NCBI GenBank assembly: GCA_963709665.1
Contig: CAVPWU010000011.1
Span: 243,416-307,415 of the forward strand
Direction of reading: 5' to 3'
Length of the DNA stretch: 64,000 bases
DNA from: an uncultured Actinomycetota bacterium
GTDB lineage: Bacteria; Actinomycetota; Acidimicrobiia; Acidimicrobiales; RAAP-2
Shown here: positions 1,392 to 18,320 of the stretch, one piece after another
How the letters are laid out: each line of letters starts with the position of its first letter
Numbering within the stretch: position 1 is the stretch's first letter
The notes under the pieces: model-generated
The model's input: only the letters and a program-made list of their open reading frames with translations
Told to the model about the DNA's origin: nothing
Databases searched by the model: none
Position numbers and translations under genes: made by a program

Positions 1392-1457
1392 GAGTGGAAA
1401 CTACATGGCACCACCGTGAAGGTGTCCCACCCACCGGGCATTGCTCAGGGATACTCC

Positions 1458-1919: not shown

Positions 1920-2004
1920 GGTTGGAGCCTACGACCGGCAGGTCCATGCGGCCATGGGAAATCCGTAGCAGCGGGTCACCCTTCTGGCGATCTGGGACAC
2001 CCTG

Positions 2005-2442: not shown

Positions 2443-2453
2443 CCCCAGAGGGC

Positions 2454-3549: not shown

Positions 3550-3573
3550 GATGGTGATACTCTGCTTGTCACC

Positions 3574-3921: not shown

Positions 3922-3976
3922 TTTCTGCCCGGTGTTCCGCTCTGATCCGCTGCGTTCGGGGACGGTCACCCAGTTG

Positions 3977-4473
3977 TCAAAGTGCTGAGCGCAGGCGGGC
4001 GATGTCGAGAAGGTGATGTGTCGCATCGTGCACGGCGTGCCGGGCGATCCAGTGCGGATCGACGGAGGCTCCGTCGAACGTCACGCCGAGGAACCAGTCG
4101 TCGGAAGAAGGTTCGGCGAGCTGGTGACTCAACGAGCGGGCCTCATGGTCAATTCCGTCAAGAGCCGCTTCGACATCAATCTGCCGAGGTTGGAATTGAA
4201 CTGCGCCGGCGGCGACTCTCCAAGGTTGGTCCCCGGGTGCGAGATGGCGCTGTCGAGAAGGAGCCTCATTCCGAAGAGCACTTCTCGGACATGATCTGCG
4301 TACTCCCCGATGGACCGCATCTCGTGAATGGGTCTTCGAAGCTGATCAACAGGAGTCAGCCCAGCGACAGCCTCATTCCATTGCAACGGAAGTTCCTGGA
4401 TTGCTGCGATCGCACTGGCATCGCTCCAATCCTCGGAGTCGAAGCCGCACTCTCCGCAGCGCTCGACATTCAC
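3977..4473 (-). pseudogene. DinB-family (DinB_2-like) protein interrupted by a frameshift near nt 4200.
   Basis: Track ORF 4129..4473 starts MNVERCGECGFDSEDW...EYADHVREVLFG and stops at 4129. Another frame stays open from 4198 to the stop at 3977-3979 and encodes ...IDVEAALDGIDHEARSLSHQLAEPSSDDWFLGVTFDGASVDPHWIARHAVHDATHHLLDIARLRSAL. That is a typical DinB C-terminus. Confidence 0.6.
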
Positions 4474-4557
4474 ATCTCTGATTCTGCCCTACTGGCTCGT
4501 CCTGTCCCACCTATTCGGCGGCGGGGTCCAGCGGCGAGGTGCACCCGGAGCCGGCGA

Positions 4558-5526
4558 TCAGGGACGAAATTGCTCAGGTGCAGGGATCACAATCTTCGGG
4601 TAAGGCAGTGCCATGATCTGAGCCACGACCTTCTCCCCTGTCCGCGTGTTGACGCCCCTGGACCATCTTCTTCGGAAGCGATCCCACTGTTTCGGTGTCC
4701 GGGGAACACGTCGTGGCAGTGCTTCCATCGCCGTCCTGAAGTCATCTTGGGGTGGGAGCTCTGCTGTGGCCTGCCTCTGGATGTCCTCCATCAAGCGGAA
4801 CGCTAGGTCCCACTCGCGAGTCTTGGCCAAGTCTTGGACGATGAGACGCTTCGCATCAACGATTGAGCGAGGATCTAACTCGAGCCTGACCGCCAGGCGC
4901 AGCATTGACTGATGAACTGATTTGGACTCCTCGAAGTGGCCCGCTTCGACCTGCACCTCGGCTAACCGAGACAGCGCAGACAGTGCCCTCAGGTCATCGC
5001 CGTAGGTCTTCGCGCAGAAGTCGGCCACAAAGGACCACAGAGTGATCACCCCCGGCTGATCACCGAGTCGACGCAGAGTCACCTCGCAATTGTTGATCGC
5101 CGCAACTCCTGCCTCCGAGTCATATCCGTAGCGGAGGAGCCACGCTGACGCCAGTCTCAGGTGAATGGGCCGAGCCTCCTCGGACCTGCCCAGGTTGGAG
5201 TAGGTATTGGCGATCGACATTTCGATGCCCTCGAATTCGTAATCGCCCTCACCGAACACCTCGGCGGCCAGAGTCAGTGCCTCCTCCGACAATCTGAGGG
5301 CCGCGTCCAGGTCTCCTTCATCAACGTACGAGCGATAGAGATCGTTTTCAGCCGACCGGGTGTTCGGGTCGGAAAAGCCGAGAGTGCTCAACTTCGTCTC
5401 GTAGTCCCTTTGCAGGAAGGCATCGTCGACGCTGCCAGGCTCAGCCACCCCGCGAGCGTATTCCGAACATCTCGACCGCTCGACGATCAAGCAGCCCGTC
5501 GCCCACGACGCCGGAGCGGGAAACAC
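4558..5526 (-). CDS. Tetratricopeptide-repeat protein.
   Basis: The 322-aa ORF has TPR-like helical repeats (..ALRLSEEALTLAAEVFGEGDYEF..IANTYSNLGRSEEARPIHLRLA..). Confidence 0.65.
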   Translation of the reverse strand: MFPAPASWATGCLIVERSRCSEYARGVAEPGSVDDAFLQRDYETKLSTLGFSDPNTRSAENDLYRSYVDEGDLDAALRLSEEALTLAAEVFGEGDYEFEGIEMSIANTYSNLGRSEEARPIHLRLASAWLLRYGYDSEAGVAAINNCEVTLRRLGDQPGVITLWSFVADFCAKTYGDDLRALSALSRLAEVQVEAGHFEESKSVHQSMLRLAVRLELDPRSIVDAKRLIVQDLAKTREWDLAFRLMEDIQRQATAELPPQDDFRTAMEALPRRVPRTPKQWDRFRRRWSRGVNTRTGEKVVAQIMALPYPKIVIPAPEQFRP

Positions 5527-5597
5527 TCCCGGCGTTTAGGGGCACGTTCTAGTACGGTGACGTTTTCCCGACCTCTTCGGATGGGTGGTGTTTCCGC

Positions 5598-6191
5598 ATG
5601 ATAGAGATCCGCCTCCGTGCATCTCCTTTCGGTCGGTCCCGGCACTCTGCCTTGATCATTGAGGACGATGTGGTCCGCGTCGTGATGCCCAATGTCCTGG
5701 CCGAGGACTGGGTCATACCCCGTGAACAAATGAGCTGGCTGAGCGATACGAAAGGTGGACCGGCCGATTCCCCTGAGCATGGGCCCGCTGTTATTCCCCG
5801 CATGCTCGTTCTCATCACCAACCGGAGCTTCGGTCCAAACATGACACTGGTCTTCGCCGAACCGCAGAGGGTGCCACCTCGCCAGCCCGGTCCCGGTGTT
5901 GGGCCGATGCCGTTCTCGGTCGACGAATCGCGTGAGGGGGTCTGGGCTGAAGGCGCCCTTGTCACCGTCGACCATAAGCGCAAGGCAAGGGACGGTCTGA
6001 TCCGAAGCGAGATCCCGACCCATCCATCCCTTCCTCATGCCATCGCAGCCATCTATGGAACGGTGGAACACCCGAGACTTAATGGAACGGAGATGCAGGA
6101 GTCGTTTGATTCCCAGGAGGGCGAAGCACTGGTCGGACCAGGACCCTTCTGGGGCCGTTTCGAACCGGTCGCCAGTCCGCACCAGTCCTGA
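5598..6191 (+). CDS. Hypothetical protein.
   Basis: 197-aa ORF. By eye its third-codon positions are G/C-enriched relative to the overlapping minus-strand ORFs. No family was recognised. Confidence 0.4.
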   Translation: MIEIRLRASPFGRSRHSALIIEDDVVRVVMPNVLAEDWVIPREQMSWLSDTKGGPADSPEHGPAVIPRMLVLITNRSFGPNMTLVFAEPQRVPPRQPGPGVGPMPFSVDESREGVWAEGALVTVDHKRKARDGLIRSEIPTHPSLPHAIAAIYGTVEHPRLNGTEMQESFDSQEGEALVGPGPFWGRFEPVASPHQS

Positions 6192-6255
6192 TCGCCAGTC
6201 GGAAGTTCCTAGTCTCCGAACCGGCGGTCTGGGGCACTCTGTCCTGCCTCGCACC

Positions 6256-6984
6256 TCAGTGCGAATGGCCCACCAGAAGTGCGAACCCTCGCCAACGCCA
6301 CATGCAATCAACCTGCGACAGTCCGCCCTCTCGCATCCATAGGAGCTGGGATTCAACAGGGGCAAGTCGATCCTCAGGGTCATCATCAGCACGGCCTATG
6401 AGGTCCAGGAACTGGCGATGAAGCTCGGGTGTGGCTGAGGCGACTACTTCCAGATTGGCAAAGACACCTTCGTCGGTGAGTTGTCCAGCGACCTCACTGA
6501 AAAGCTCCCGCTTTCGCTCGTCCTCAACGTGGTGGATTGAGAATCCAGCGACAACAACATCGAACGAACCAAGTGGCGTGAGGGACTCCTCCAAACTCCA
6601 CTCTCGGAGCTGAACTCGATGATCGCCGTCGAATCGATCTCGAGCATGGCTGAGCATGGCGGGCGAGGAGTCGACGGCCAGAACCCTCTCGACGCTGCTT
6701 CGGTGTTCGAGCACCAGTGCAGCCAGCCTGCCGTCCCCACAACCCAGGTCGAGAACGGTGCGAGGTGAGGCAGGCAGCACCGACACCAGTACCTCCTCAC
6801 CTGCAGCCCGTGGGGCCAATCCACCAATCCGGGTCAGGTAGCGATCCACTCGATCAGGATCACTCCACGTTGCCGCCTGGGGGTTCTCGGGACCTGGTGG
6901 GATGGCCACCTCCAGATACTTACCGAAGGAGCGACCTGGCGCCCGTCCGCACCTGCCCCACTCGTGCCGTCTAGCCACGGTCAA
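6256..6984 (-). CDS. Class I SAM-dependent methyltransferase.
   Basis: Motif I is VLDLGCGDGRLA, followed by FDVVVAGFSIHHV. The start is taken at TTG 6984, preceded by GGAGAGGG, because the longer track ORF would overlap the upstream LLM gene. Confidence 0.75.
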   Translation of the reverse strand: MTVARRHEWGRCGRAPGRSFGKYLEVAIPPGPENPQAATWSDPDRVDRYLTRIGGLAPRAAGEEVLVSVLPASPRTVLDLGCGDGRLAALVLEHRSSVERVLAVDSSPAMLSHARDRFDGDHRVQLREWSLEESLTPLGSFDVVVAGFSIHHVEDERKRELFSEVAGQLTDEGVFANLEVVASATPELHRQFLDLIGRADDDPEDRLAPVESQLLWMREGGLSQVDCMWRWRGFALLVGHSH

Positions 6985-7024
6985 TAACTGACCCTCTCCC
7001 GGCGATCTGGGGCACCCCCCAATG

Positions 7025-8020
7025 TCAGGTCTGGCTCGCTGGAGAGCGAGGAACGGATGCCATCGTTCGAAGCTCTCGCTCGACATCGGGACCGGTCGGC
7101 GTGTAGATGATCTCCGTATAGCCTGCATCACCCAGACGGTCCAGCTGCCGCGTTATTCGGTCGGGCTCCCCGACCATCGACTTGATGTCGATGTGTGGGA
7201 GGAGTTGGCGGTCCCGATCGGGGAGATGGGTTGCGTGACCGTCGAACGTCAGCAGGTGTCGCTGGTTCGGGGGTGCCAGGGCCTCAAGGGCCTCACGCCA
7301 TGCCCGTCCACCGGGCAGATCGTCCACCGCCTCGGCACCTCCGTTGGCGTAGGCATTGTGCCAGTCGACAACCCGCCATGCCCCAATGGAATTCCGGACC
7401 CGGTCTGACCCTGGATCCTCGCCTGGCTCAAGCACAGTGCCGGACACGATCATGGCTGCCGGCAGGGTTGGGTGGGGCAAACCGATGATTCCATCGGCCG
7501 CTTCACCGGCCAGCGCACGTCCCCGTGGCCCGAAAACGCTCAGCCAGAGTGGGACAGCGACAGGCCGGGCCTCGGTCAGTCCGGGTGCGTGGAGCATCCG
7601 GGCGGGCGCTCCGTCAACCAATACGATCTCCCCGGCCAGAAGCTGCCGCAGGGCGGTCACGTATTCGACGAGGGCAGTGAGGGTCATCGCCCGCTGACCT
7701 ATGGCCAGGCGGGCAGTGAAGCCGGTGCCGAAGCACGCCCGGAGGCGGCCCCCCGAAATCCGGGCCACCGTGACTAGCGCCGAGGCCATGGCCATCACGG
7801 ATCGCTGAGTCGGGATCAACACGGCAGTGGCGAGGCCGATGCGCTCAGTCCTCTCGGCGGCGAGGGCAAGATGGACGAAGGGGTCCTCCCACAGCGGAGC
7901 GGAGTCGTAGATCCACACTCGGGCATAGCCGAGTTTCTCGGCGAGCACCGCCAGGTCGGCAAAGTTCGGTCCCGGAGGAAGCCCGCACGACAGCTCGAAC
8001 TTACCCATGACGCGATTCAC
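7025..8020 (-). CDS. LLM-class (luciferase-like) flavin/F420-dependent oxidoreductase.
   Basis: 331 aa with ...LAEKLGYARVWIYDSAPLWEDPFVHLALAAERTERIGLATAVLIP... typical of the luciferase-like monooxygenase fold. Confidence 0.8.
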   Translation of the reverse strand: MNRVMGKFELSCGLPPGPNFADLAVLAEKLGYARVWIYDSAPLWEDPFVHLALAAERTERIGLATAVLIPTQRSVMAMASALVTVARISGGRLRACFGTGFTARLAIGQRAMTLTALVEYVTALRQLLAGEIVLVDGAPARMLHAPGLTEARPVAVPLWLSVFGPRGRALAGEAADGIIGLPHPTLPAAMIVSGTVLEPGEDPGSDRVRNSIGAWRVVDWHNAYANGGAEAVDDLPGGRAWREALEALAPPNQRHLLTFDGHATHLPDRDRQLLPHIDIKSMVGEPDRITRQLDRLGDAGYTEIIYTPTGPDVERELRTMASVPRSPASQT

Positions 8021-8155
8021 GTTTCGGGGTTAGTGCCTCGGCATGGATGGCGTCGATCTCTATGTCCTCAAGGCCGCTCCACCACTGGTTGAAGATCAAC
8101 ATCGACGCAGTATCCCAGCATGGGGACGTGGTCTCACTCCCGGCGATCGGGGGAG

Positions 8156-8794
8156 CTACCCAGCATCCCCACACGCTCGGAAGGCATAGTCCGAGAGTTC
8201 ACGAACGTCGGCTCTGGTGGCCTCGTTTGATCGGACTGCCGCTGTCGCAGTGGATGATCCGGCTATGGCAACGAGCCTCCTGACTGTCGGCTGCAACGAA
8301 GCCGGAAGCGAGGAGACCAACCGACCAGCGCTGGCTTCGCTCATATCAACCGCCCTGACGATTGCCAGGCGGTCTGCGGGCGCCGGATCGGTCACTCCGT
8401 CCGTCAAGATGTTGATCCACTCGGGGCCGTCATCCGATGAACCGTCAGTGGCATCGAAGGACTGGAGTTCTCCGACGTTCACGCTATTCAACTGGTAACA
8501 GGGGTCGGGGCCGAGATTCGCGAGCGACTGCTTCGTAGCGAAGCTTGTTGCTCCGACTACCAGCACCACCAAGGGAACGGCGATGAGCCAACGGCGAGCT
8601 GGTGCCCAAACCAGGAGACACAGACCGATCAGACCGACACCGATGATGGCTGCGATGACCGACCAGGTAGGGAGTCCAAAGACTCCGGACGGAGGGGGCG
8701 GTTCGGTACGCATGTAGAGAACCGAGTCAAGAACTCCAACGACGATCACGGCCATGGCGGCGAGACAAAGAGCAACAAGGGTTTGCTCTTTCAT
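8156..8794 (-). CDS. Hypothetical integral membrane protein.
   Basis: 212 aa with three N-terminal hydrophobic segments followed by a soluble domain. Confidence 0.6.
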   Translation of the reverse strand: MKEQTLVALCLAAMAVIVVGVLDSVLYMRTEPPPPSGVFGLPTWSVIAAIIGVGLIGLCLLVWAPARRWLIAVPLVVLVVGATSFATKQSLANLGPDPCYQLNSVNVGELQSFDATDGSSDDGPEWINILTDGVTDPAPADRLAIVRAVDMSEASAGRLVSSLPASLQPTVRRLVAIAGSSTATAAVRSNEATRADVRELSDYAFRACGDAG

Positions 8795-8857
8795 TGGTCG
8801 TTGGCGAGAGATGGAGTCATCATTCCATCGGATTCCCTCCCTGTCCCGAATGTGTTG

Positions 8858-8890
8858 TTACACGGGTGATCCACGGGCCCTGGACCGAGG
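8858..8890. repeat. Left inverted repeat of E2.
   Basis: The sequence is TTACACGGGTGATCC-ACGG-GCCCTGGACCGAGG. It matches the reverse complement of 11291-11321 with a 15-nt exact core plus about 11/14 further matches and a 2-nt indel. Confidence 0.6.
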
Positions 8891-8905
8891 CCCATCGAAG
8901 CACAG

Positions 8906-10204
8906 TCAGCCGACGCCGTCGACGTCGTGGATGAGCTTCTCGAAGAGGACGATCCGGTCGCCCTGGTCGTGTTCGGCGGCGTGGTCTCGTTGGCGCTTCA
9001 GGATCGGGATGAACTGGGGACCGGTCTCGAAGAAGGTGCAACGCTCGCAGGCGGACTCGAAGGAGCAGCCCAAGGCGGCTGGGCGGGTGCACATCCCGTT
9101 GCCCAGCATCCTCCGATGGTCGGCCGCCAGTCGGCGCATGTTCGACCCGGCCGCATCGTCCGGAAGGGCTTCCGTTCTTCCGTAGTTGGCTTCGACGGCC
9201 TCGGTCACCCGGAAGTACTCGTCAGCCACCGTGCGGTCCGAGATCCGGGCATAGGTCATGGTCATCCGCATCGACCGGTGGCCGAGAAGGGCGGCGATCG
9301 CCTCCAGGCTCATGCCCCGGTTGATGGCTTGGGTGGCCAGGGTGTGGCGGAGCTGGTGGGGATGGACGTGTCCGACGCCGGCCCGCTTGGCGACCGCTTC
9401 GACATAGCGGTGGATGGTCCGGCGGTCGAAGGGTTGCCCGTCGTTGCGGACGACCAGATGGCCGGAATGGCTCGGCCCTCTGGTTCTCCGGTAGTCGGTG
9501 ATGAGGTCGACCAGGATGGGGTGGAGCGGCACGTAGCGGTCGTTGTGCAGCTTCCCCACTGGGATGCGCAGCCAGAAGGTCTCGCTGATCTGCACCATGG
9601 CGTCGTCCTCGAGAGCAGCCAGTTCCCCGACCCGCATGCCGGTTCTGGCCAGCAGTTCGACCATCAGTCGCCGACGAGGGTTGGGGTCGACACCCAGGGC
9701 GGCCATGAACCTGGCCATGGTGGGGTCGTCCAAGAACTTGGGCAACGGCTCGTCGGCCTTCGGGAAGTCCCCGGGAAAGATCGGCACCCGGGCCGGGGCG
9801 TCGTCATAGCCCCACTCGATGATCCGCTCGAAGAAGGTCCGGAGCAGCCCGAGGCGGTGCCGAATGGTGGTGGTCGAGAGCAGCTTCCCGCGTTTGCCGG
9901 GCCGGGCGGCCTGCCAGATCTTGAAGTCCTCGATGTGGCGCCGCTCGACATCGGCGACGGCCACGCACCACCGGTCGGCCTCGGTCACCCGGCCGGCGAA
10001 GAACCGCAGGGCGATGTCGAAGGCGGAGACGGTTCCGGGTCGGGCCGACACCGACAGCTGGTCCAGGTAGGTGGCCATGGTGGAGGCCATCAGGGGCGCA
10101 CGCTGGGCAATCTCTCCCCAGGTGATCTCCGGCCCAGCACCTCCGAAGCGTCGATTGACCGGCTCATCTGGCCCGTTGAGGGATGGGATCGCAAGCGCGG
10201 TCAT
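8906..10204 (-). CDS. Tyrosine recombinase/integrase with a C-terminal Cys-rich tail.
   Basis: The catalytic set is visible: ARTGMRVGE (R), VGKLHNDR (K), HQLRHT, LGHRS, TYARI (Y). The tail is CTRPAALGCSFESACERCTFFE. The ATG overlaps the upstream stop (ATGA at 10201-10204). Confidence 0.9.
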   Translation of the reverse strand: MTALAIPSLNGPDEPVNRRFGGAGPEITWGEIAQRAPLMASTMATYLDQLSVSARPGTVSAFDIALRFFAGRVTEADRWCVAVADVERRHIEDFKIWQAARPGKRGKLLSTTTIRHRLGLLRTFFERIIEWGYDDAPARVPIFPGDFPKADEPLPKFLDDPTMARFMAALGVDPNPRRRLMVELLARTGMRVGELAALEDDAMVQISETFWLRIPVGKLHNDRYVPLHPILVDLITDYRRTRGPSHSGHLVVRNDGQPFDRRTIHRYVEAVAKRAGVGHVHPHQLRHTLATQAINRGMSLEAIAALLGHRSMRMTMTYARISDRTVADEYFRVTEAVEANYGRTEALPDDAAGSNMRRLAADHRRMLGNGMCTRPAALGCSFESACERCTFFETGPQFIPILKRQRDHAAEHDQGDRIVLFEKLIHDVDGVG

Positions 10205-11244
10205 CGGGCCATCCCCACGTTCGCCTGGGCGTCGATGGCCTCGGCGGCCCGCCGATACTCGTTGGCCAGCCAGTCACCTCCGAGGTGGAGGTAGATCCGG
10301 GTGGAGGCGATCGACCGGTGTCCGGCCAGCGCCTGGATGGCCTCGATGGCCATGCCCGCCTCCTTCAGACGGGTGAAGCAGGTGTGGCGGAGCTCGTGGC
10401 AGGTCCCGTGGGTCAGGCCGACCCGGGCCCGGGCCGCCCCGAAGACCTCGTCGAGCCCGTCCGCCGACAGGGGAGCGCCCCGTCGGGGCTCCCGCAGCAC
10501 CACGAACAGCCGGTCGGTCGGGGCATCGGGCGGTCGTTCCCGGTTCAGGTAGTCAGCCACCGTGGCGAAGAAGGTCGAAGAGATGGGGACCAGGCGCTGG
10601 TGACCTCCCTTGCCCTCGGCGATGAACAGCTGCTTCTCGCCGACCCGCAGGTCCTCCAGGCGCAGACCCAGCACCTCGCAACGGCGGAGCCCGCCGAGCA
10701 ACATGGCCTGGGCCATGGCCCGGTCCCGATCGGTCCGGAACGACGACATCAGCAGCTCGACGTCGCCGGCGTCGAGGATCCGGGGCAGCCGTCGCACCCC
10801 TCGCACCAACGGCACACCCCGTTGGTCCCGATGACGGCTCCGTCGGGTGGGCATCCCCCGGGGGACCGGGTTGGCAGCCAGGGTGGTGTCTCCCCGGAGG
10901 ACCACGTAACCGAAGAAGGCCGACACCGCCGCCAGCCGTCGTTTGATGGTGGCCGGCGACAAACCGGACAGGCCGTCGCTGATCCGGACCACGTTGTCGA
11001 CTCCGGACCTCGAACGCTGCTGGGCGGCGATGAAGCCGAGGACGTCCTTCGGCGTCACCTCGGTGGGATCCTTGGTCACCACTCCGAAGAAGATCTTCAG
11101 GTCGTGGGCATAGGCCCGCACCGTGCTCGGTCGGCACCGCACCGACGCGAACTCGAGGAACTCATCGACCAGCTCGTGGCCGACTCGATAGGTCTTGTGA
11201 CCATCGGACCCGACAACACACTCGAATACCGGACTCCACTGCAC
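10201..11244 (-). CDS. Tyrosine recombinase/integrase (XerC/D-like size).
   Basis: The catalytic motifs are GGLRRCEV, EGKGGHQR, HELRHT, AGHRS and IYLHL. An N-terminal SAM-like core-binding domain is present. Confidence 0.9.
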   Translation of the reverse strand: MQWSPVFECVVGSDGHKTYRVGHELVDEFLEFASVRCRPSTVRAYAHDLKIFFGVVTKDPTEVTPKDVLGFIAAQQRSRSGVDNVVRISDGLSGLSPATIKRRLAAVSAFFGYVVLRGDTTLAANPVPRGMPTRRSRHRDQRGVPLVRGVRRLPRILDAGDVELLMSSFRTDRDRAMAQAMLLGGLRRCEVLGLRLEDLRVGEKQLFIAEGKGGHQRLVPISSTFFATVADYLNRERPPDAPTDRLFVVLREPRRGAPLSADGLDEVFGAARARVGLTHGTCHELRHTCFTRLKEAGMAIEAIQALAGHRSIASTRIYLHLGGDWLANEYRRAAEAIDAQANVGMAR

Positions 11245-11290
11245 GCCGCACCTCCTGGTTGGACTTCCACCCGAGGAAGGTTCCTCGTGT

Positions 11291-11351
11291 GGTCAGTCCA
11301 GAGGGCGGATCACCCGTGTAAGTGCCGTTCAGGGACGTTTCACCCGTGTAA
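11291..11351. repeat. Right inverted repeat of E2, plus a second direct copy of the 12-mer TCACCCGTGTAA.
   Basis: TCACCCGTGTAA occurs at 11310-11321 and again at 11340-11351, with 30-bp spacing. Confidence 0.6.
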
Positions 11352-11639
11352 TCGCGATATTGGGACGGACTGGGAGAATCGGTCAGTCGATAGTCCGCCG
11401 GCAAAGGGGATCTCCCACCGTCCCAACGTCACCCTCAATGTCATCCTCCGTGGTCAGGCGACGATTTCGACCCAGTGGTGGAAGGCTGGAAGCCCTCTGC
11501 CAAACGCCGCCAGCGCCAGTCCGGGTCCGATGGACAGTCCTGCCGTCCCCGCATCGCCCCCCGGCCACCTTGAACACGATTGCGAAGGGGGTCCCTTGGG
11601 GCTGAGGGCAGCTCTGGCCGGACTCGGGACACAGACACC

Positions 11640-12100
11640 ACTTGCGCCATGTCTTCTCCTCCGCAGCGGCTCCGGCTGGCGGGACGGTAACGCCGCACAA
11701 TGGAGTGCACTGATCGGATCCTGGCCGCCTCGCTCGACCTCCCGAACCGCACCGACCCCACAGCCATGGTGATGAGCCGAGCTCGGTTCTGACGACCGCA
11801 ACGGGCGTCCGGGGCGGGCATCGAGCCCGCCCCGACCGCGAGGTGGCGATGACAGACGCGTGGGGCCGGACCTGGACAACAAGTCCACACAGTTGCACCA
11901 GAGGATGCGGTCCCGATACGTCCTGTTTCGTCCCAGAATGCCGGGGTCCGCGAGCGGCAACGGCGAGCCCCGTGAGGCGCCTCCGGGTGTGGACTTCGTC
12001 GGTGCCACCTCGCATTCACCACCCCGTGTCGGTCGGGCCCCGGACCAGCGAGGGTGACGTTGTAGTGGGGGAGACGCATATTCGATTGGCTTGTATTCGA
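11640..12100. repeat. Left inverted arm of E1.
   Basis: Blocks shared in inverted orientation with the right arm are 12075-12100, 11883-11896, 11813-11831, 11761-11769 and 11645-11653. This arm has an extra ~165-nt segment (about 11897-12074) with no counterpart on the right. Confidence 0.55.
11813..11831. repeat. GC-rich hairpin repeat, copy in reverse orientation.
   Basis: The sequence is GGCGGGC-ATCGA-GCCCGCC. Its reverse complement matches 15443-15461, and the similar flank extends to about 30 nt. Confidence 0.5.
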
Positions 12101-12131
12101 GAGCCTGACCACTGGCGGTGGGGTTCGGCCA

Positions 12132-13574
12132 TCAGAAGTTGGTTGTCTGGCGAGCCTTGGCGGCGGCATAGGCGGCCCAGTCGGTGCCGAGGGCGGCGGC
12201 CCGGTTGGCGACGGTGTTGCGGTGGTAGCCGAGTGAGCCGGAGATCAAAGGGGCGGGGAGCGTGCCGATGAGTCGGGCCAGAGCCGCCTGGCGACCCGCT
12301 CGGGTGACGCCCAGCCCGGACAGCTGATGGGACAAGGCCCGACCCGACAGATGGCTGTCCGGGAAGTTGCCCGGGAACAGCCAATCGGCTGTTCCGGTCG
12401 GTGTTCGGGAGTCGAGCAGCTCGGTCAGCAACGCCGCCATCGGGGCCGGGAGCGGCACCGGATTGGCACCGAGGGTCAGGAAGATCTCCCCGTGGCGGTC
12501 CTCGATGTCGGCGAGGGTGAGATCGCAGATCCGGTTGACCGACTGGGCGAGTCCCAGCACCAGGCACCCGGCCAGTCGCCCGCGGAGGTTGATGCTGTCG
12601 TCGCCCAGGAGCTCGTCGAGCAGCCGCCGCCGGTCGGACTCCGGGCCCGGCGTGAAGGACCGGACCGGGGGCTTCGGGAAGCTGAGCGTCGGGCGCCGGT
12701 TGAGCCGCCCCACCCAGCGGATGAAGTCCTCGGCGGACCGGGGGTTGGAGGCGGTGGCGAACCAGGCATCAAGGTCGGATTGGGCGACGGTGGCAACCGT
12801 CCGGCCGCGGGTGGCCAACCAGCTCAGCCAACGGAGTCCGGCATTGGCCCGGTTCCGACAACCGGCGACCCAGCTGTAGGCCAGGGGGCCGTCTTGGGCC
12901 CGGTCGACCAGGTCCCGGTGGTGCCGCCAGACCAGGTAGGTGCGCAGCAGGCGCCGGTGCTCGGGGTCGCCGATCACCTCCAGGAAGCGCACGCTCCACC
13001 GCTCGAAGTTCCCGAGCTGGGTGTCCCGACGGTCGATGACGCCCGCCCCCATCAGCAGCTGGCGGAGGTAGTCGACCTCCCGGCCCGGCGGCAGCGAGTC
13101 CACGCCGGCATAGTCGAGGGTGACCGTGCCGTTGGCCAAGGTCCGGAGCCGGTCGGCGGTTCCTCCCCGGCTCAGCCAGATCAGCCGTGCCCAGGGTCGG
13201 CCGGTGGAGGTGATCAGCTCCACCAACGGCACCAACGCCGGGGTGACCTGGCCGGTCCCGTCGTCGAGGAGGGCGGCCAGCCGGCGCTGCAGCGAGCAGG
13301 CCAGGCAGGTGGCGGAGAACCACTGCTGGCCTTCGGCCCCACAGGTGGCGCAGAGGAACGAGCGGGGAATCGCCGCGGAGTCGACGCAGAGACCTGCTCC
13401 CTTCCCATCGCGCCCGGGCAGGAGCCGGTCGACCCCACAGCCCGCACACGGTCCTCGCCGCTGGACAGCGTGGCGCAGACAGGTCCGACACACCGGCCCC
13501 TCCGGCCAGGTCTGACACGCCCGCTGCGCCCGGTGGCAGCGGGCGCACTCCACCCGCTTGGCCGGGGCGGTCAC
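12132..13574 (-). CDS. Zn-ribbon-rich protein with a divergent tyrosine-recombinase-like C-terminal domain.
   Basis: GTG 13574 overlaps the upstream stop (GTGA). The N-terminus has five CxxC motifs (CARC, CRTC, CAGC, CATC, CLAC). The C-terminus reads ...NRICDLTLADI...LGYHRNTVANRAAALGTDWAAYA. It is integrase-like, but I cannot see the canonical HxxR box. Confidence 0.7.
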   Translation of the reverse strand: MTAPAKRVECARCHRAQRACQTWPEGPVCRTCLRHAVQRRGPCAGCGVDRLLPGRDGKGAGLCVDSAAIPRSFLCATCGAEGQQWFSATCLACSLQRRLAALLDDGTGQVTPALVPLVELITSTGRPWARLIWLSRGGTADRLRTLANGTVTLDYAGVDSLPPGREVDYLRQLLMGAGVIDRRDTQLGNFERWSVRFLEVIGDPEHRRLLRTYLVWRHHRDLVDRAQDGPLAYSWVAGCRNRANAGLRWLSWLATRGRTVATVAQSDLDAWFATASNPRSAEDFIRWVGRLNRRPTLSFPKPPVRSFTPGPESDRRRLLDELLGDDSINLRGRLAGCLVLGLAQSVNRICDLTLADIEDRHGEIFLTLGANPVPLPAPMAALLTELLDSRTPTGTADWLFPGNFPDSHLSGRALSHQLSGLGVTRAGRQAALARLIGTLPAPLISGSLGYHRNTVANRAAALGTDWAAYAAAKARQTTNF

Positions 13575-13900
13575 CGGTTCGGGTCGACCCGGGCCCGCCG
13601 GGGCCGCCGCCGGGCGGCCAGATCGATGGGGGGCGGATCGCCCTCGCCGGGCCGGGGCGGCAACCCGGCCGCCACCCCGATGAGGTCGGCGGGCGTGCAC
13701 GAGAAGATGTCACAGAGAGCAGCCAGGGTGGGGAGCGAGATGCGCTCGGGCACCCGGGCGGCCATCCGGTAGACCTGGGCGGTGGAGAGGTGGACGCCCC
13801 GGTCGGCCAGCAGCGGGAGCAGATCGGTGGTCTTCCAGACGCCGTGGGCGGCCATCACCTCCCGCAGCCGCCAGCTGTAGGTCACCGACCGGGTGGTCAC
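13571..13900 (-). CDS. XRE/Cro-type helix-turn-helix protein.
   Basis: GTG 13900 overlaps the recombinase stop (GTGA at 13897-13900). The HTH is HLSTAQVYRMAARVPERISLPTLAALCDIFSCTPADLI. Confidence 0.75.
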   Translation of the reverse strand: MTTRSVTYSWRLREVMAAHGVWKTTDLLPLLADRGVHLSTAQVYRMAARVPERISLPTLAALCDIFSCTPADLIGVAAGLPPRPGEGDPPPIDLAARRRPRRARVDPNR

Positions 13901-15009
13901 GATCCGGCCACCTTCCGGGATGGCCCCATCACCACGGCGTCCAGGGCGCTCCGCAGCATCCGGGTGCGGTAGTCGGAGGAGACCGAGGTGTAGATGGCGG
14001 TGGTGGAGGCGTGGCGGTGTCCCACCTGCTGCTGGACGAAGAGCACGTCGAAGCCGTCCTCGATCAGGTGGGTGACGTAGGAGTGGCGGAGGGAGTGCGG
14101 GCTGAGGGCGGTGTCCAGCCCGGCCTCTTTCGCCGCCGAAGCGAACGCCGAGTTGAGCCGGTCCTCGCTCACCCGGTCGTCCCGCTCCGAGGGCCACAGG
14201 CCCGCCGCCCCCTCCCGGCGGACCGAGGGCCAGATGTCCGTCGTCCACTCGTCCATCACCTCGGCCGTCCAGCCCATCACCGTGAGCACCCCCCGACGCC
14301 GGGGGCCCGACCCGTTGGCCGCCTTGCCGAAGCGGACCTGGCAGACCCCGAAGTCACCGAACTCGGGGGCCTGGGGGTTGGCCCCGAAGTCGTGGCGCTC
14401 GAGCATCACCACCTCCCGGCGGCGCAGGCCCCAGCCGTAGGCGACCTTCAGCATGGTGGCGTCCCGGAACGCCGGCACCCACCCCTTGCGGCCTCCCATC
14501 CGGATCCGGTCGGCCCGGGCGTCGGCGGCGTCGAACAGGTCCTGGCACTCGGCCCGGGTCATCGACCGTCGCCCGGGCCGGGCCTCGGCGTCGACCACGT
14601 GGGACATCGAATTGGCCCCCGAACAGATCTGGACGGGGTGGGTCCCGAAGCGGGTGAGGCACTCCCCGTCCCAGCCGTAGACGGGGTCGCAGACGTAGGC
14701 CAGAAAGCCCCGGAGGCTGAGCTGGTAGCTCCGGAGGGTGGACGGTGCCCGGTGCTCCATCCGCAGCTCTGCCGACCACGTCTCGAACCCGGCGGGTGTC
14801 CACGCCCAGGGGAACGACGACGCCGACTCCTGGAAGCGACGGACCACCCGGGCGCCGGCGTCGATGGTGGCGAACGACAGGCTCCGAGCCAGTTGCTGGG
14901 CCCGCCAACCGTCGAGCATCGCCTCGAACACCGCCGACTCGGGATCCAGCTCCACGACACCGTCGACCAGGCTCAGATGAGCCGCCCCGACCACGTTCCT
15001 GCCTTGCAC
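13897..15009 (-). CDS. Tyrosine recombinase/integrase.
   Basis: 370 aa with GWGLRRREV (R), FGKAANGSGPRRR (K), HSLRHS, VGHRH and IYTSV (Y). Confidence 0.9.
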   Translation of the reverse strand: MQGRNVVGAAHLSLVDGVVELDPESAVFEAMLDGWRAQQLARSLSFATIDAGARVVRRFQESASSFPWAWTPAGFETWSAELRMEHRAPSTLRSYQLSLRGFLAYVCDPVYGWDGECLTRFGTHPVQICSGANSMSHVVDAEARPGRRSMTRAECQDLFDAADARADRIRMGGRKGWVPAFRDATMLKVAYGWGLRRREVVMLERHDFGANPQAPEFGDFGVCQVRFGKAANGSGPRRRGVLTVMGWTAEVMDEWTTDIWPSVRREGAAGLWPSERDDRVSEDRLNSAFASAAKEAGLDTALSPHSLRHSYVTHLIEDGFDVLFVQQQVGHRHASTTAIYTSVSSDYRTRMLRSALDAVVMGPSRKVAGS

Positions 15010-15025
15010 AAGGCCACCCTTCGTG

Positions 15026-15063
15026 GTCGCAACTGACGCGCTGATTCGATCATCAGTTGCGAC
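15026..15063. promoter_or_regulatory. Perfect 11-bp inverted repeat just upstream of the E1 recombinase start. It could be an operator or a 5' hairpin.
   Basis: The repeat is GTCGCAACTGA (15026-15036), a 16-nt spacer, then TCAGTTGCGAC (15053-15063). It lies 17-54 nt upstream of start codon 15009. Confidence 0.4.
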
Positions 15064-15285
15064 TGAGACAAGGGATGCCTGGTCAGCGAGGTGAGGACCG
15101 GTGAACCCAACGTCACCCTCGACGTCACCTCACCGACGAACTGCCTGGTCACACGACAGAACGGGACCCGCCAACGAATACGCATCCATTCGAATATGCG
15201 GCAGTGGCATTGCCCAATGCAACTGTGTGGACATGACCCTCCAGCTTCAGTCGCACAACCAGGAAGTCACTACCCAAGGCGCCAC

Positions 15286-15304
15286 GGCGGGCTCAATGCC
15301 CGCC
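15286..15304. repeat. GC-rich hairpin repeat.
   Basis: GGCGGGC-TCAAT-GCCCGCC. Confidence 0.5.
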
Positions 15305-15442
15305 TGGGCGCCTCCTCGTGCCATGGGTGCGGGGAGGCTCCGTGAGGATCGCCAGGAGGTCGACCATCCCATGATGCACAGGTGTGGGAGTTCTCGTACG
15401 GCTCCGGCGACGCCGACCCTCTGCTTCCTCCTCGGCGGACAT

Positions 15443-15461
15443 GGCGGGCTCGATGCCCGCC
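15443..15461. repeat. GC-rich hairpin repeat.
   Basis: GGCGGGC-TCGAT-GCCCGCC followed by CGGGCCGCCC. The reverse complement of the 11.8-kb copy is followed by CCGGACGCCC. Confidence 0.5.
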
Positions 15462-15517
15462 CGGGCCGCCCTGGGGTGACCGGCGCCACGGCACTCCCCA
15501 ACGTTGGCCCCAGGGGC

Positions 15518-15940
15518 TTAGGCGGCAACGTGGAGGGCAATACCGAGCTCCTCGGTGGCACCAGCGAGAAGCCCTCCGACGTTCCGCTCCGAGCCGAACC
15601 ACAGGGCGCTCCCGTTGTGGAGTCCGGCGGCGAGCGTCTCGTCGATGAGCCACCCCCCGCCAAACCGGGCCCCAATCCGAGCTGCCTCATCGAGAAGGGG
15701 GCGGGGGTCGAGGATCTGCAGAACCTCCGGATGTGGGAACCGGAGCGTGTCACGATCAGTTGGCGTCAACGCAGCCAGTCTCCGGGAGAGCTGCCCACCA
15801 CCTGGTCCGTGGATGCGCTGCAGGAGCCGCCAGTGCCGGCTCGAGGAAGGACCGGGTCTTCGGTGTCGGGGAGGTCCGCTGGCCATCCGTCGCTGGCGAA
15901 ACACCACGCGGATGGCCAGGTACTCGTCGATCACGATCAT
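15518..15940 (-). CDS. Putative PIN-like toxin of a type II toxin-antitoxin pair.
   Basis: 140 aa starting MIVIDEYLAIRVV. It lies 21 nt downstream of a 62-aa ORF on the same strand. The assignment rests on size, organisation and the N-terminal motif only. Confidence 0.45.
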   Translation of the reverse strand: MIVIDEYLAIRVVFRQRRMASGPPRHRRPGPSSSRHWRLLQRIHGPGGGQLSRRLAALTPTDRDTLRFPHPEVLQILDPRPLLDEAARIGARFGGGWLIDETLAAGLHNGSALWFGSERNVGGLLAGATEELGIALHVAA

Positions 15941-15961
15941 CGCGACAGGTGGATGATCGAT

Positions 15962-16150
15962 TCAGTCGGCGTCTGCCTGGCCACCGAGAAGGGGATCCGC
16001 AGTCAGATCGGCGTCAAGTGCAGCCTGGAACTCCTCGGCCAGATCGCCCGTGGTGATCTGGGAGATGATCTTGCGACCTTCCTCGGTGACGCGGGGGTCT
16101 CCGGCCCGCCGGCGCAGGCGCTTCTGCTCGGTCAGGTCTGCAACGGCCAT
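15962..16150 (-). CDS. Putative antitoxin: a small acidic protein upstream of the PIN-like ORF.
   Basis: 62 aa with a basic N-terminus and an acidic C-terminus (..DADLTADPLLGGQADAD), in a typical TA gene arrangement. Confidence 0.4.
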   Translation of the reverse strand: MAVADLTEQKRLRRRAGDPRVTEEGRKIISQITTGDLAEEFQAALDADLTADPLLGGQADAD

Positions 16151-16285
16151 GGCCCAATTATGCCTGTCGGCCCCTCATTGCGCCACGGGTTCAGGGGCGG
16201 CAGTACTCCGCAATGTGCCTCGTCGAAGGATTTTGGGCGTGCTGGATCGGTACACTGAAGCAGACGATCTTCGCTGGCCCGACCG

Positions 16286-16315
16286 GTGTGTTGGGTCAGG
16301 TCCGACCCAACACAC
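16286..16315. other. Perfect 12-bp stem / 6-nt loop hairpin in otherwise non-coding DNA.
   Basis: GTGTGTTGGGTC-AGGTCC-GACCCAACACAC. Confidence 0.5.
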
Positions 16316-16517
16316 GCCCATCCTCGAGCTGACGGATTGGGATCGTCTGATCGCTGAGAATCCTGTTCTCAACCCAACTTTCAACCCAACAATTGCGTCT
16401 CAGCGTGTCACATCGCTCACCGCCCAGTTTCGAGGTCCGGTGGACCGAGGCGGTCGGACCTGGGAAAATGAGCCGGGCCGGGACGAGGTGTGACCTTGCG
16501 CGATTCTCGAGAGTCCT

Positions 16518-16559
16518 CTTGTAATCGTCAGGTCGTGGGTTCGATTCCCACCGCCGGCT
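16518..16559 (+). tRNA. Orphan 3' half of a tRNA-Thr(UGU)-like gene. It is not an intact tRNA and is probably an att-site remnant.
   Basis: The parts in order are CTTGTAA (anticodon loop, TGT), TCGTC, AGGTC (variable loop), GTGGG-TTCGATT-CCCAC (T arm), CGCCGGC (acceptor 3' strand) and T (discriminator). No GCCGGCG 5' acceptor strand, D arm or pairing 5' anticodon stem lies upstream. Confidence 0.6.
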
Positions 16560-16650
16560 CGCTGTCATCTCTCAAGAGATAGGCAACATCCGAACCCACG
16601 GCCTCACGAATTCCGGGGGCCGGCCGGGACCCCGGGGCCCCGGCGGCGGG

Positions 16651-17004
16651 TCACGGTGTGTCGATGGCCTCCCGGAGTGCGGCCAGGCGGTCACGGTTCA
16701 GCGAGTACCAGACCCAACGACCCCGCTTCTCGCCCTGGATGAGGCCGGCCTGGCTCAGGATCTTCAGGTGGTGGGAGATGGTGGGCTGCGACTTGCCGAG
16801 CGGGTCGACGAAATCGCACACGCACACCTCACCGCCGGAGGCGTCCGCCAACATGCTCAGGACCCGGAGCCGGACCGGGTCGGACAGCGCGCTGAACCCG
16901 GCAGCCAGCTCGGCGGCATCGGCCGCGCCCAGAGGGGCGGAGAGGACCGACGGGCAGCACCGGTCGACTGACCGGACCTCCGGTGCGGAGGTCGTCTCGG
17001 GCAT
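16651..17004 (-). CDS. ArsR/SmtB-family metalloregulator.
   Basis: The signature is LSDPVRLRVLSMLADASGGEVCVCDFVDPLGKSQPTISHHLKILSQAGLI. The start is taken at MPETT (17004). Confidence 0.85.
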   Translation of the reverse strand: MPETTSAPEVRSVDRCCPSVLSAPLGAADAAELAAGFSALSDPVRLRVLSMLADASGGEVCVCDFVDPLGKSQPTISHHLKILSQAGLIQGEKRGRWVWYSLNRDRLAALREAIDTP

Positions 17005-17016
17005 CTGATCAACCTT

Positions 17017-17038
17017 CCCATTGACGAACGTGAATGGG
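17017..17038. promoter_or_regulatory. Near-perfect 22-bp palindrome in the divergent arsR / cadI-like intergenic region, a candidate ArsR operator.
   Basis: In CCCATTGACGAACGTGAATGGG, 9 of 11 positions pair. Confidence 0.5.
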
Positions 17039-17086
17039 TCGATCATACTCGACGCATCGACGTCTGTGAATGTAATGGAGGTTCCC

Positions 17087-17575
17087 GTGTCCCGAGTCCA
17101 GCTGGCCCTCAACGTGGCAGACCTCGACGTGGCCGTCGACTTCTACTCCAAGCTGTTCGGCACCGGACCGGCCAAGCGCCGGCCCGGATACGCGAACTTC
17201 GCCATCGCCGACCCTCCCTTGAAGCTGGTGCTGATGGAGAGCACCGCCGGCCGGGGGCACGGCGTGGAAGGAGCCCTCAATCACCTCGGCGTCGAGGTGG
17301 CGACGGCGGGGGAGGTCGCCGAGGCGTCGGGTCGGCTGAGTGGCGGGGGCCTGACGACGGAGGTCCAGGACGCGACGACCTGCTGCTTCGCCGTCCAGGA
17401 CAAGGTGTGGGTCGAGGACCCGAACGGCGTTCCCTGGGAGATCTACACCGTGTTGGCCGATGCCCCCGCCGAGACCGGGATCGCCGGCGACGGATCGTGC
17501 TGTGTCCCCGAGACAGGCCGGCCGGACGACGTGACGGTGGGAACGACCCCGTCGCCGTCCACCGGCTGCTGCTGA
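17087..17575 (+). CDS. ArsI/CadI-family VOC (glyoxalase-fold) metalloenzyme.
   Basis: VSRVQLALNVADLDVAVDFYSKLFGTGPAKRRPGYANFAIADPPLKLVL...TTCCFAVQDKVWV closely follows the M. tuberculosis CadI sequence as I recall it. GGAGG lies 5 nt upstream of GTG 17087. Confidence 0.85.
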   Translation: MSRVQLALNVADLDVAVDFYSKLFGTGPAKRRPGYANFAIADPPLKLVLMESTAGRGHGVEGALNHLGVEVATAGEVAEASGRLSGGGLTTEVQDATTCCFAVQDKVWVEDPNGVPWEIYTVLADAPAETGIAGDGSCCVPETGRPDDVTVGTTPSPSTGCC

Positions 17576-17582
17576 GCCGCCG

Positions 17583-18320
17583 ATGAAGCGCACCGCCCTG
17601 GGGAGGTGCCTGGTTGCCGAGTTCCTGGGAAGTGCCCTCCTGGCGGCCGTGGTGGTCGGATCCGGCATCGCCGCCCAGAACCTGTCGCCCGGCGAGGCCG
17701 GCCTCCAGCTCCTCGAGAACGCCGCAGCCACCGCTGCCGGGCTCTACGCCATCATCCTGATGTTCGGCCCGGTGTCCGGTGGTCACTTCAACCCGGTGGT
17801 GTCGTTCGTCGACGCCGCCTTCGGTGGGGTGAGTTGGCGGACCGCCGGTGCCTACCTGCCGGCCCAGGTGGCCGGGTGCATCGCCGGGGCGGTGCTGGCC
17901 AACCTGATGTTCTCCAAGGCGGCGGTCACGTTCTCGACGCATCACCGGGCCACCCCCGCGCACTTCCTGTCGGAGGTGGTGGCCACGCTCGGCCTGATCG
18001 TGGTCATCTTCGCCCTGGCGCGGAGCGGTCGCTCCCGGAGTGCCCCGGCCGCCATCGCCGCCTACATCGGCGCTGCCTACTTCTTCACCAGCTCCACCAG
18101 CTTCGCCAACCCGGCCATCACCGTGGGTCGGACGTTCTCCGACACCTTCGCCGGGATCGCTCCGGCCTCGGTCCCCAGCTTCATCGCCGCCCAGGTCGTC
18201 GGCGGTGCGTTGGCACTGGTACTCATCAAGGTGCTCTACCCGGACATCACCGAGGCGGAGGCCGCCGACATCATCGTCCCCCACCGGACCGCCACCCCGA
18301 CCCTTGGAGGGCCGACGTGA
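17583..18320 (+). CDS. MIP-family (aquaglyceroporin-like) channel inside the ars cluster.
   Basis: Six hydrophobic segments. The two NPA-type boxes are HFNPVVS and ANPAITV. Confidence 0.9.
   Translation: MKRTALGRCLVAEFLGSALLAAVVVGSGIAAQNLSPGEAGLQLLENAAATAAGLYAIILMFGPVSGGHFNPVVSFVDAAFGGVSWRTAGAYLPAQVAGCIAGAVLANLMFSKAAVTFSTHHRATPAHFLSEVVATLGLIVVIFALARSGRSRSAPAAIAAYIGAAYFFTSSTSFANPAITVGRTFSDTFAGIAPASVPSFIAAQVVGGALALVLIKVLYPDITEAEAADIIVPHRTATPTLGGPT

Follow-up and report, generated by a model that had tools for sequence, protein, structure and literature searches.

Within a 64,000-nt stretch of an uncultured Actinomycetota genome (contig CAVPWU010000011.1 of assembly GCA_963709665.1; hereafter the window) lies E1, a unit of three genes for a tyrosine recombinase, an XRE-type helix-turn-helix (HTH) protein and a zinc-ribbon protein with a recombinase fold. 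We consider it likely that E1 (~12062-15206) is intact and belongs to a family of small, autonomous transposable or integrative elements that are built on a tyrosine recombinase and widespread among Actinomycetota. The family has a conserved gene trio, defined ends and a uniform size; its copies occur in varied contexts, several of them at the same codon of a gene under selection; and the third protein has lost most of its catalytic residues. The element belongs with the known multi-protein tyrosine-recombinase transposons, as a large family that, as far as we found, is apparently unnamed; no description of the recombinase/XRE/Zn-ribbon trio was found in the freely searchable full-text literature. 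The original prediction, made from the sequence alone, was of a compact non-DDE element of ~3.8 kb (11640-15465) built on this operon. The compact element survives, as a conserved trio in a unit with its own ends; the outer limits do not, and the extent is put at about 3.1 kb.

Gene content

The three open reading frames (ORFs) of E1 are on the minus strand, chained by 4-nt GTGA stop/start overlaps at 13900-13897 and 13574-13571. The first (13897-15009) encodes 370 aa, the second (13571-13900, from the GTG at 13900) 109 aa and the third (12132-13574, from the GTG at 13574) 480 aa. Their third-codon-position GC content (GC3) of 0.87-0.93 is usual for genes of the source genome. This arrangement, and the nature of the first two products, had been read correctly in the original prediction. 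The 370-aa protein is a tyrosine recombinase superfamily member with a PF00589 catalytic domain (7.5e-21) and the complete R-K-H-R-H-Y set; R196, K229, H305, R308, H331 and Y340 are all invariant in an alignment with nine other recombinases. We presume it to be the sole catalyst. It fell far below every Xer, integron and invertase cut-off in NCBIfam (top score 89.5 against 279 bits). The 109-aa protein is of the XRE/Cro-C1 type (PF13443 HTH_26, 2.9e-14) and presumably regulatory, and its gene stands between those of the two recombinase-fold proteins wherever the complete trio was detected among the fetched loci.

The 480-aa protein

The third protein combines an N-terminal CxxC array with a recombinase fold whose catalytic set is incomplete. 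The window copy has the five intact CxxC motifs originally reported and an additional, degenerate pair, the fourth in order (C63...S66); when 23 homologues are aligned, six CxxC pairs appear in the consensus within the first ~95 residues. The Pfam scan, run on a 522-aa form of the ORF (12132-13700), gave PF00589 at 3.4e-4 and 20.9 bits, under the 27.1-bit cut-off, and no NCBIfam family was matched by the 480-aa protein, gamma-mobile-trio models included. An AlphaFold2 model (mean pLDDT 85) was used as a Foldseek query and matched the two-domain tyrosine recombinases XerA, Cre, Tn1549 Int, XerH and lambda Int with E-values from 1e-5 to 1e-3 and TM-scores of ~0.5 relative to the targets.

Catalytic positions were mapped by profile-profile alignment against ten canonical recombinases and by profile-sequence alignment to XerD, and both gave the same assignment. 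The Arg I position is Ser345 in the window copy and Pro in the consensus, the beta-hairpin Lys falls within a deletion, His II is absent, the His III position is Tyr450 and that of the nucleophilic Tyr is Ala459. The profile alignments agree with the earlier observation that a canonical HxxR box is lacking. Arg II, the invariant R428, is the only one of the six catalytic residues retained. As the hhalign probability is low (see below), this mapping stands on two concordant weak alignments together with the fold match. The profile and structure searches thus found PF00589, HTH_26 and a recombinase fold in the three proteins, with the catalytic set incomplete in the third. With one catalytic residue of six left, the 480-aa protein is probably a non-catalytic partner, an architectural or targeting subunit, which is the role first suggested for it. 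Its ~805-aa relatives have this non-canonical C-terminus in common with it.

Ends and extent

E1 is bounded by imperfect 26-bp repeats in mutually inverted orientation, each made of two direct GCRTATTCG-like 9-mers. On the gene (minus) strand, the downstream repeat at 12075-12100 reads CGAATACaagccaaTCGAATATGCG and is followed by a conserved extension at 12062-12074, TCTCCCCCAC then TAC. Across 23 loci the consensus of this end is CCAATACGCAGCCATCGAATATGCG (window 12100-12065, together with the extension); that of the extension is TCTCCACCAG, then t/c and a, beyond which the flanks diverge. The upstream repeat at 15175-15200 reads CGCATATTcgaatggATGCGTATTCG on the same strand (consensus of 21 loci, CGCATATTnCATCTGATGCaTaTTCG), and the six semi-conserved nucleotides outside it, at 15201-15206, are CACTGC, with consensus (C/A)A(A/C)(C/T)(C/T)(T/C). 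From repeat to repeat the unit measures 3,126 bp in the window and 3,103-3,181 bp across 17 measured loci, window included.

Blastn homology between the window and loci L042 and L057 runs from 15203 to 12062/12063 at 78-79% identity; that to L058 begins at 15209 and that to L001 at 15228. These four relatives share flanking backbone homology with each other over kilobases, whereas the homology of the window stops at the repeats, so that the same unit is found in a different setting in the window. It is from the stops at 12062 and 15203 that we set the extent of E1 proper (downstream terminus, three genes, promoter arm and upstream terminus) at ~12062-15206 on the minus strand rather than 11640-15465.

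The promoter arm contains a tandem motif, CCCAACGTCACCCTCGACGTCACC (15106-15129, minus strand), 97-120 nt before the recombinase start, a candidate XRE operator or accessory site whose position is conserved in L001, L042, L057 and L058. Against an expectation of 0.14, the window has three copies of the 13-mer CAACGTCACCCTC. An inverted copy (12050-12062, minus strand) abuts the downstream terminus, and the copy at 11424-11436 lies upstream of the gene for a neighbouring 347-aa recombinase. A scan for promoter and terminator consensus sequences gave no match.

Some relatives vary at the downstream end. In L013 (7403-7510) and L043 (3523-3620) the same element end has two tandem downstream terminal repeats, 73-82 nt apart, which could be a duplicated end or an additional binding site. 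In L001 and L042 GC-rich hairpins, CCGCCCTTCGGGCGG and CTCCGCCCTCCGGGCGGAG, directly follow the terminal CCACTA(G/C), and a shorter one, CCCGaataCCGGG, is found in L056; these could be an operon terminator or part of a hairpin-type target.

Family distribution

A word-indexed protein search found 60 homologues of the 480-aa protein, whose precomputed Pfam column was empty apart from one PF00589 entry; those with a named source were mostly proteins from Acidimicrobiales metagenome-assembled genomes (MAGs). Scanning one genome per species gave 30 loci, from Acidimicrobiales, Streptosporangiaceae, Streptomyces, Saccharopolyspora, Actinocorallia, Nonomuraea, Nocardiopsis, Amycolatopsis, Pseudonocardia, Actinosynnema and Solirubrobacterales, and a metagenome scan gave 18 further loci. 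By tblastn the order recombinase, XRE, Zn-protein holds in nearly all scan loci, the exceptions being truncated contigs or degenerate copies. In all, the trio was seen in ~45 fetched loci across Actinomycetota, with Rhodococcus and Mycolicibacterium among the hosts.

Plasmids are frequent carriers: the 480-aa protein matches 230 plasmid records in PLSDB (Streptomyces 96, Rhodococcus 55, Arthrobacter 19, Mycobacterium 9, and others), and almost all of the RefSeq plasmid matches listed are labelled "hypothetical protein". Cultured carriers include Rhodococcus sp. USK10, one plasmid record of which has up to 6 places that match the family, and Streptomyces sp. NBC_01546. In pRHL2, nothing of relevance turned up in the first 50 kb. 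When 1.84 billion cluster representatives (clusters defined at 50% identity) were searched with a profile, 1,886 proteins reached E <= 1e-30 and 4,830 reached E <= 1e-10. These matches come in two sizes, ~480 aa and 650-850 aa, and the long form keeps the gene order in the 13.7-kb plasmid of Streptomyces SNU607, in Rhodococcus DK17 pDK3 and in Mycolicibacterium.

Genomic contexts and target choice

The trio occurs in many unrelated contexts, rather than at one syntenic, vertically inherited locus. It is found beside a TrwC relaxase and a type IV secretion system coupling protein, beside IS110 and McrBC-like genes, in an ordinary stretch of chromosome with a tRNA-Val gene 25 nt away, and on a 13.7-kb plasmid. 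One MAG has three copies at 97-99.7% identity. Several loci terminate at contig breaks, and a tblastx comparison of the window with the genes that flank the relatives returned short high-GC noise only.

Five loci (L006, L007, L041, L011 and L009) have the element at the same codon of an AAA_22/ExeA-type ATPase gene, which it splits, in an rve-type (Mu-like) transposon. The target sequence ends just before the 6 nt outside the upstream repeat and resumes right after the downstream 10 nt. When the unit (6 nt and upstream repeat through downstream repeat and 10 nt) is excised together with one of the two flanking CA dinucleotides, the reading frame gives IPQAAD, MAQAAS and IPQTQD, colinear with LAPQAAE in Rhodococcus and LIPQATD in Streptomyces. 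These intact homologues, on Rhodococcus RHA1 pRHL3 and a Streptomyces plasmid, each stand beside a DDE transposase gene. Two other footprints were rejected: a 5-bp core (CCACC) shared by both junctions requires a three-residue insertion, whereas removal of one CA restores exact colinearity, and a 6-bp footprint in the manner of SE and Tn554 requires a five-residue insertion and is less parsimonious.

The C-terminal halves of the split ATPase genes run through 162-163 codons without stops, with synonymous divergence (dS) of 0.8-1.1 and a nonsynonymous to synonymous ratio (dN/dS) of 0.17-0.41. Had the gene been inactivated a single time, in a shared ancestor, disruptions and a dN/dS close to 1 would be expected. 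Given purifying selection on the split halves, repeated and recent insertion at one site of diverged target genes appears the likeliest account; precise reversible excision, or a split ATPase gene that still functions, are less likely alternatives. Taken together, the comparative evidence strongly suggests mobility.

L006 and L041 differ along the split gene: their N-terminal flanks (26 codons) are 100% identical in protein and their C-terminal halves 57%. Such a mosaic could arise by recombination between elements occupying one site in different host transposons.

Three further arrangements involve other mobile elements. In L052 (1348-4533) the flanks can be read as those of a trio apparently inserted, inverted, into another trio-type element's promoter arm: on one side are the host's upstream repeat and its initial ~50 nt, on the other its tandem GGGTGACGTT motifs; since no second trio was detected there, the host element looks like a remnant. 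In L010, L044 and L054 the same tandem motif lies just outside the upstream repeat, a placement that may reflect nesting or self-targeting. On Rhodococcus DK17 pDK3 (L062, 270-8001) a long-variant trio (392-aa recombinase, HTH protein, 806-aa protein) stands between genes for integrases of 381 aa and 812 aa, which are homologues of a Tn554-like pair that overlaps by 4 nt in Arthrobacter FB24. The C-terminus of the 381-aa integrase differs from that of its FB24 counterpart. The DK17 trio appears to have been inserted between tnpA-like and tnpB-like genes.

Alternative interpretations

Several observations weigh against E1 as a mobile element with the ends and division of functions given above. 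For the window element neither a circular junction nor an empty site nor a second, near-identical copy was found. L001, L042, L057 and L058 all have the trio at the same syntenic place of a conjugative backbone. The window termini are flanked by GC and TA, with neither a target duplication nor a common core, and a search for direct repeats at the window junctions found none. The upstream boundary is uncertain for this subfamily because the window carries ~100 nt of the plasmid relatives' upstream flank (in units A, B and C, described below): the boundary in the subfamily could lie further out, or the window copy could have arrived with flanking DNA. End repeats comparable to those of E1 were not found for the ~805-aa long variants (DK17, SNU607). 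As for the 480-aa protein, hhalign matches its family weakly to the canonical recombinases (probability 6.6%, E 0.0055), and an invariant Tyr, Y469, stands 10 residues past the canonical nucleophile position, so that some residual or unorthodox catalysis may be possible.

The syntenic copies raise the alternative of a site-specific recombination module that resides in a larger plasmid, integrative and conjugative element (ICE) or island and serves multimer resolution or island integration and excision; the trio would then not move independently, and the 26-bp repeats would be res- or att-like sites. This fits the four plasmid relatives, where the trio lies in one place between SSB-side genes and the TrwC relaxase gene, and the upstream unit that they have in common with the window. 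It also fits the second operator-like double motif beyond the downstream end of L001, ahead of the TrwC gene, and the setting of the window copy in a region of lower GC3, ~1.3 kb from a sequence that by eye resembles a tRNA 3' fragment. We nonetheless hold it improbable, because the same 3.1-kb unit, cut at its repeats, is found in the split ATPase gene, by McrBC-like genes, by a tRNA gene and inside mobile elements; because its size is invariant and it has no cargo; and because homology to the plasmid copies stops at the downstream terminus in the window. The second direct copy of the tandem motif in L001 (AGGGTGACGTTCAGGGTGACGTCGAT, ~7622-7647, before the TrwC relaxase gene) is of interest in its own right, as the XRE protein of that element might also regulate the relaxase of its host plasmid.

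In the original prediction E1 was enclosed by patchy inverted arms several hundred bp long, with five ordered blocks in each. As functional ends of an ~3.8-kb element (11640-15465) such arms are very improbable, and the similarity behind them resolves into other features. The first block is the family-wide terminal repeat. The second and third are real and fall within a ~100-nt unit that is present three times; on the gene strand it reads ...GCCGGACCTGgAC...TCCACACAGTTGCA..., with a hairpin, GGCGGGCTCGATGCCCGCC, at its element-distal end. Unit A (11803-11907, plus strand; hairpin 11813-11831) is an inverted copy outside the element. Unit B (15207/15218-15312, minus strand; TGCAACTGTGTGGAC ... 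hairpin 15286-15304) is a direct copy that abuts the upstream end, as flank or as a subfamily-specific extension. Unit C (15365-15471, minus strand; hairpin 15443-15461) is a direct copy outside the element, 157 nt further out. The inverted similarity of A to C (71% over 108 nt, E 6e-12) and of A to B (66% over 96 nt, E 7e-6) is significant, and the 19-nt hairpin has three close copies in the window (0-1 mismatch); at up to three mismatches it has 4 matches against 0.33 expected, a number reached in 0 of 100 shuffles. Nothing significant aligns beyond 11803, and 11640-11790 is covered by no significant alignment, which leaves the fourth and fifth blocks and the limits at 11640 and 15465 unsupported. 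The right flank, which had been taken as one arm, contains two tandem units, B and C, that the proposed blocks mix, and the right copy of the fifth block lies inside unit C, not in an arm with the first three.

The sequence following unit A (~11908-12062), which ends in the inverted CAACGTCACCCTC at the downstream terminus, aligns weakly with the upstream repeat and arm and may be what is left of the upstream region of a different copy; this and the inverted similarity of A and B are what long arms would have in their favour. Against them, none of five close relatives has an inverted unit downstream of the element, ~20 relatives end in the 26-bp inverted repeats, the homology of the window to four close relatives stops at 12062 and 15203-15228, and the ATPase-gene copies leave no space for arms, as coding sequence reaches to 6 and 10 nt from the repeats. 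The combination of trio and long arms is thus not an architecture of the family; the long arms are local repeats of the window.

The units do have counterparts. In L042, L057 and L058 a homologous stretch of ~110 nt occurs once, directly before the upstream repeat, and consists of another hairpin followed by GCCGGACCTGTAC..TCCACACCCGTGCACC..; unit B resembles it in architecture and partly in sequence, and unit A aligns with the upstream flank of L042 at 82% over 45 nt (E 4e-8). An Rfam scan of 8000-18000 gave no relevant match at the E-value threshold, so the units match no known RNA family. We also considered and rejected them as peptide genes, since the short ORFs inside them change reading frame between copies, and unit C as an unoccupied target site, since the downstream flank has no similarity to the continuation of C.

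Scarcely credible is an invertible or shuffling switch, in which neighbours such as the adjacent recombinase pair would be controlled through recombinase-driven inversion of the DNA lying between inverted sites (the terminal repeats or units A and B): the operon is flanked by inverted sites, the operator-like motif recurs upstream of the 347-aa recombinase gene and there are weak NCBIfam matches to tyrosine invertase families, but these matches score 30-34 bits against cut-offs of 221-222, both orientations are seen at no locus, and the varied contexts favour movement.

Comparison with known systems

E1 is neither an insertion sequence nor a classic integrase/excisionase module, as had been stated from the start. 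Its 3.1-kb size is invariant, there is no cargo, and the repeats flank only three genes. Like the Tn554 family (TnpA, TnpB, TnpC) it is a small non-DDE transposon whose co-oriented, overlapping operon encodes one tyrosine recombinase of ordinary size, another, larger protein with the recombinase fold, and a small protein; the two are also alike in hosts that include actinobacterial plasmids and, apparently, in site preference. They differ in gene order, which in E1 is recombinase, small protein, large protein; in the small protein, here an XRE HTH protein; and in the large one. Both Tn554 recombinases have the RHRY set (PMC10214605), whereas the 480-aa protein is without Arg I, Lys, His II and Tyr and its ~805-aa relatives are likewise non-canonical. 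As for insertion traits, the same-codon insertions in the ATPase gene indicate site preference, with CA on both sides there and GC and TA at the window copy.

Tn554-related actinobacterial transposons consist of pairs of a short and an abnormally long tyrosine-based site-specific recombinase (Van Houdt et al. 2012, PMC3414803). We compared one member listed there (Table 2), the Arthrobacter FB24 plasmid 1 pair of 400 and 803 aa with a 4-nt overlap. In BLASTP it matched DK17 int381 and long2 with 46% and 38% identity; the 480-aa protein was unmatched and the 370-aa recombinase gave only a 65-aa catalytic-core match (E 3e-5). The FB24 long protein has the canonical HDFRR...GH...Y motif. In the original prediction the trio with its long arms was not recognised as a described class; for the trio this accords with the one Tn554-related pair compared, which tested as a different family, and with the literature search.

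SE (IntA, Tfp, IntB, Srap) and GInt (GinA-D) have, in Tfp and GinC, a recombinase fold without the catalytic motif (PMC10214605, PMC5385486). E1 is like them in its dead recombinase-fold partner, coupled operon, imperfect terminal inverted repeats and target preference, a likeness of working principle that does not show homology. Their modules have two catalytic recombinases and Srap or GinD, and E1 has three genes, with one catalytic recombinase and an XRE protein. SE and GInt carry cargo and are found in Gamma- and Betaproteobacteria, whereas E1 carries none, E1-type hosts are Actinomycetota and the 480-aa protein begins with an array of Zn-ribbons. At the level of the GmtX/Y/Z families there was no NCBIfam match, GmtY giving 21.6 against 340 bits for the 370-aa protein.

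Recombinase-in-trio (RIT) elements encode three catalytic tyrosine recombinases, RitA, RitB and RitC (PMC8138268, PMC10214605). Three co-oriented genes with 4-nt overlaps and flanking inverted repeats are common to RIT and E1, a feature shared with other families and insufficient for membership. In E1 only gene 1 is catalytic, gene 2 being HTH_26 and gene 3 a pseudo-recombinase; with a single catalytic recombinase among three genes E1 is not a RIT element, a point on which we agree with the original reading.

There is also some likeness to lambda-type integrase systems, in that the outer 8-mers CGCATATT and AATATGCG resemble C' and C in attL and attR. Unlike these systems E1 has no Xis, cargo or identical core repeat at its junctions, and the joined ends would have a spacer of ~16-18 nt against the canonical 6-8-bp overlap region. 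With no cargo and no direct att repeats, E1 does not have the features of a classical integrase/excisionase element (prophage, ICE, or integrative and mobilizable element).

Proposed mechanism and significance

For E1 as a mobile element, the following scheme would fit the gene and repeat organization. The 370-aa recombinase would bind the outer 8-10-mers (CGCATATT / AATATGCG), which in joined ends would form a classical inverted core-type site; it would presumably form the active tetramer, excise the element as a circle and integrate the circle into a weakly conserved target. The 480-aa protein, in which three Zn-ribbon-like Cys4 units precede a core-binding-like and a dead catalytic domain, would act as a non-catalytic subunit for DNA binding, synapsis or target choice, perhaps on the inner 9-mers and by analogy with Tfp and GinC. 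As this Zn-ribbon protein is always encoded with the recombinase, is coupled to it in translation and is strongly conserved, it is best read as a subunit that binds DNA, assists synapsis or selects the target. The XRE protein is a likely repressor of the operon, acting through the tandem GGTGACGTCGA-GGGTGACGTT motif ~100 nt upstream. A pattern for the circle junction, GAATATGCGKC-N6-26-CGCATATT, was searched in viral contigs; all 13 hits were in low-GC phage contigs without the trio and were therefore rejected as chance matches.

A broader proposal, tentative and slightly easier to doubt than to accept, is that these elements are an undescribed, phylum-wide transposon class: a cargo-free 3.1-kb unit (~4 kb in variants that encode the ~805-aa protein) whose dead Zn-ribbon recombinase would recognise the ends or the target and which would prefer other mobile elements, namely the ATPase codon of rve transposons, the gap between Tn554-like tnpA and tnpB genes and, in elements of its own kind, the promoter arm. 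It might then be a parasite or a reversible switch of other mobile DNA.

Neither Pfam nor NCBIfam has a model for the family of the 480-aa protein, which, used as a transposon signature, would allow thousands of actinobacterial loci to be annotated. If the role proposed for it is true, it would add a further, apparently independent case of a dead recombinase-fold subunit to SE Tfp and GInt GinC, and would make the role of such subunits experimentally approachable in the tractable hosts Streptomyces, Rhodococcus and Mycolicibacterium. The same-codon insertions in a selected transposon ATPase gene hint at interactions between mobile elements, and a self-contained, site-preferring module of 3.1 kb could become a genetic tool for high-GC Gram-positive bacteria.

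Neighbouring sequences

Two more complete tyrosine recombinase genes, for 347 aa and 432 aa with a 4-nt overlap, lie on the minus strand at 8906-11244, 818 nt downstream of E1. The two weakly resemble the Arthrobacter FB24 Tn554-related pair: the short protein shows 27% identity over 342 aa (E 1e-22) and the 432-aa protein matches the long one at 30% over 136 aa, C-terminal Cys-rich motif included. A copy of the operator-like motif, CCCAACGTCACCCTCAATGTCA, is found at 11422-11443, ~180 nt upstream of the pair, which may be a separate Tn554-like element or functionally linked to E1.

About 1.3 kb to the right of E1, at ~16523-16560, is a sequence like the 3' part of a tRNA (gtcgtgggttcgattcccaccgccggctcg), called by neither ARAGORN, which reported no tRNA in the window, nor Rfam. 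ORFs in window 1-8900 fail the GC3 filter, and GC content there is ~60%. The tRNA-like sequence and this composition suggest that E1 may sit in a larger integrated island, of which the tRNA-like piece would be an att remnant. Between E1 and this piece two adjacent small minus-strand ORFs, of 140 aa (15518-15940) and 62 aa (15962-16150), have the look of a toxin-antitoxin pair; the 140-aa product has no Pfam match, and its stop codon is followed, 57 nt downstream, by the unit C hairpin, in the manner of a terminator.

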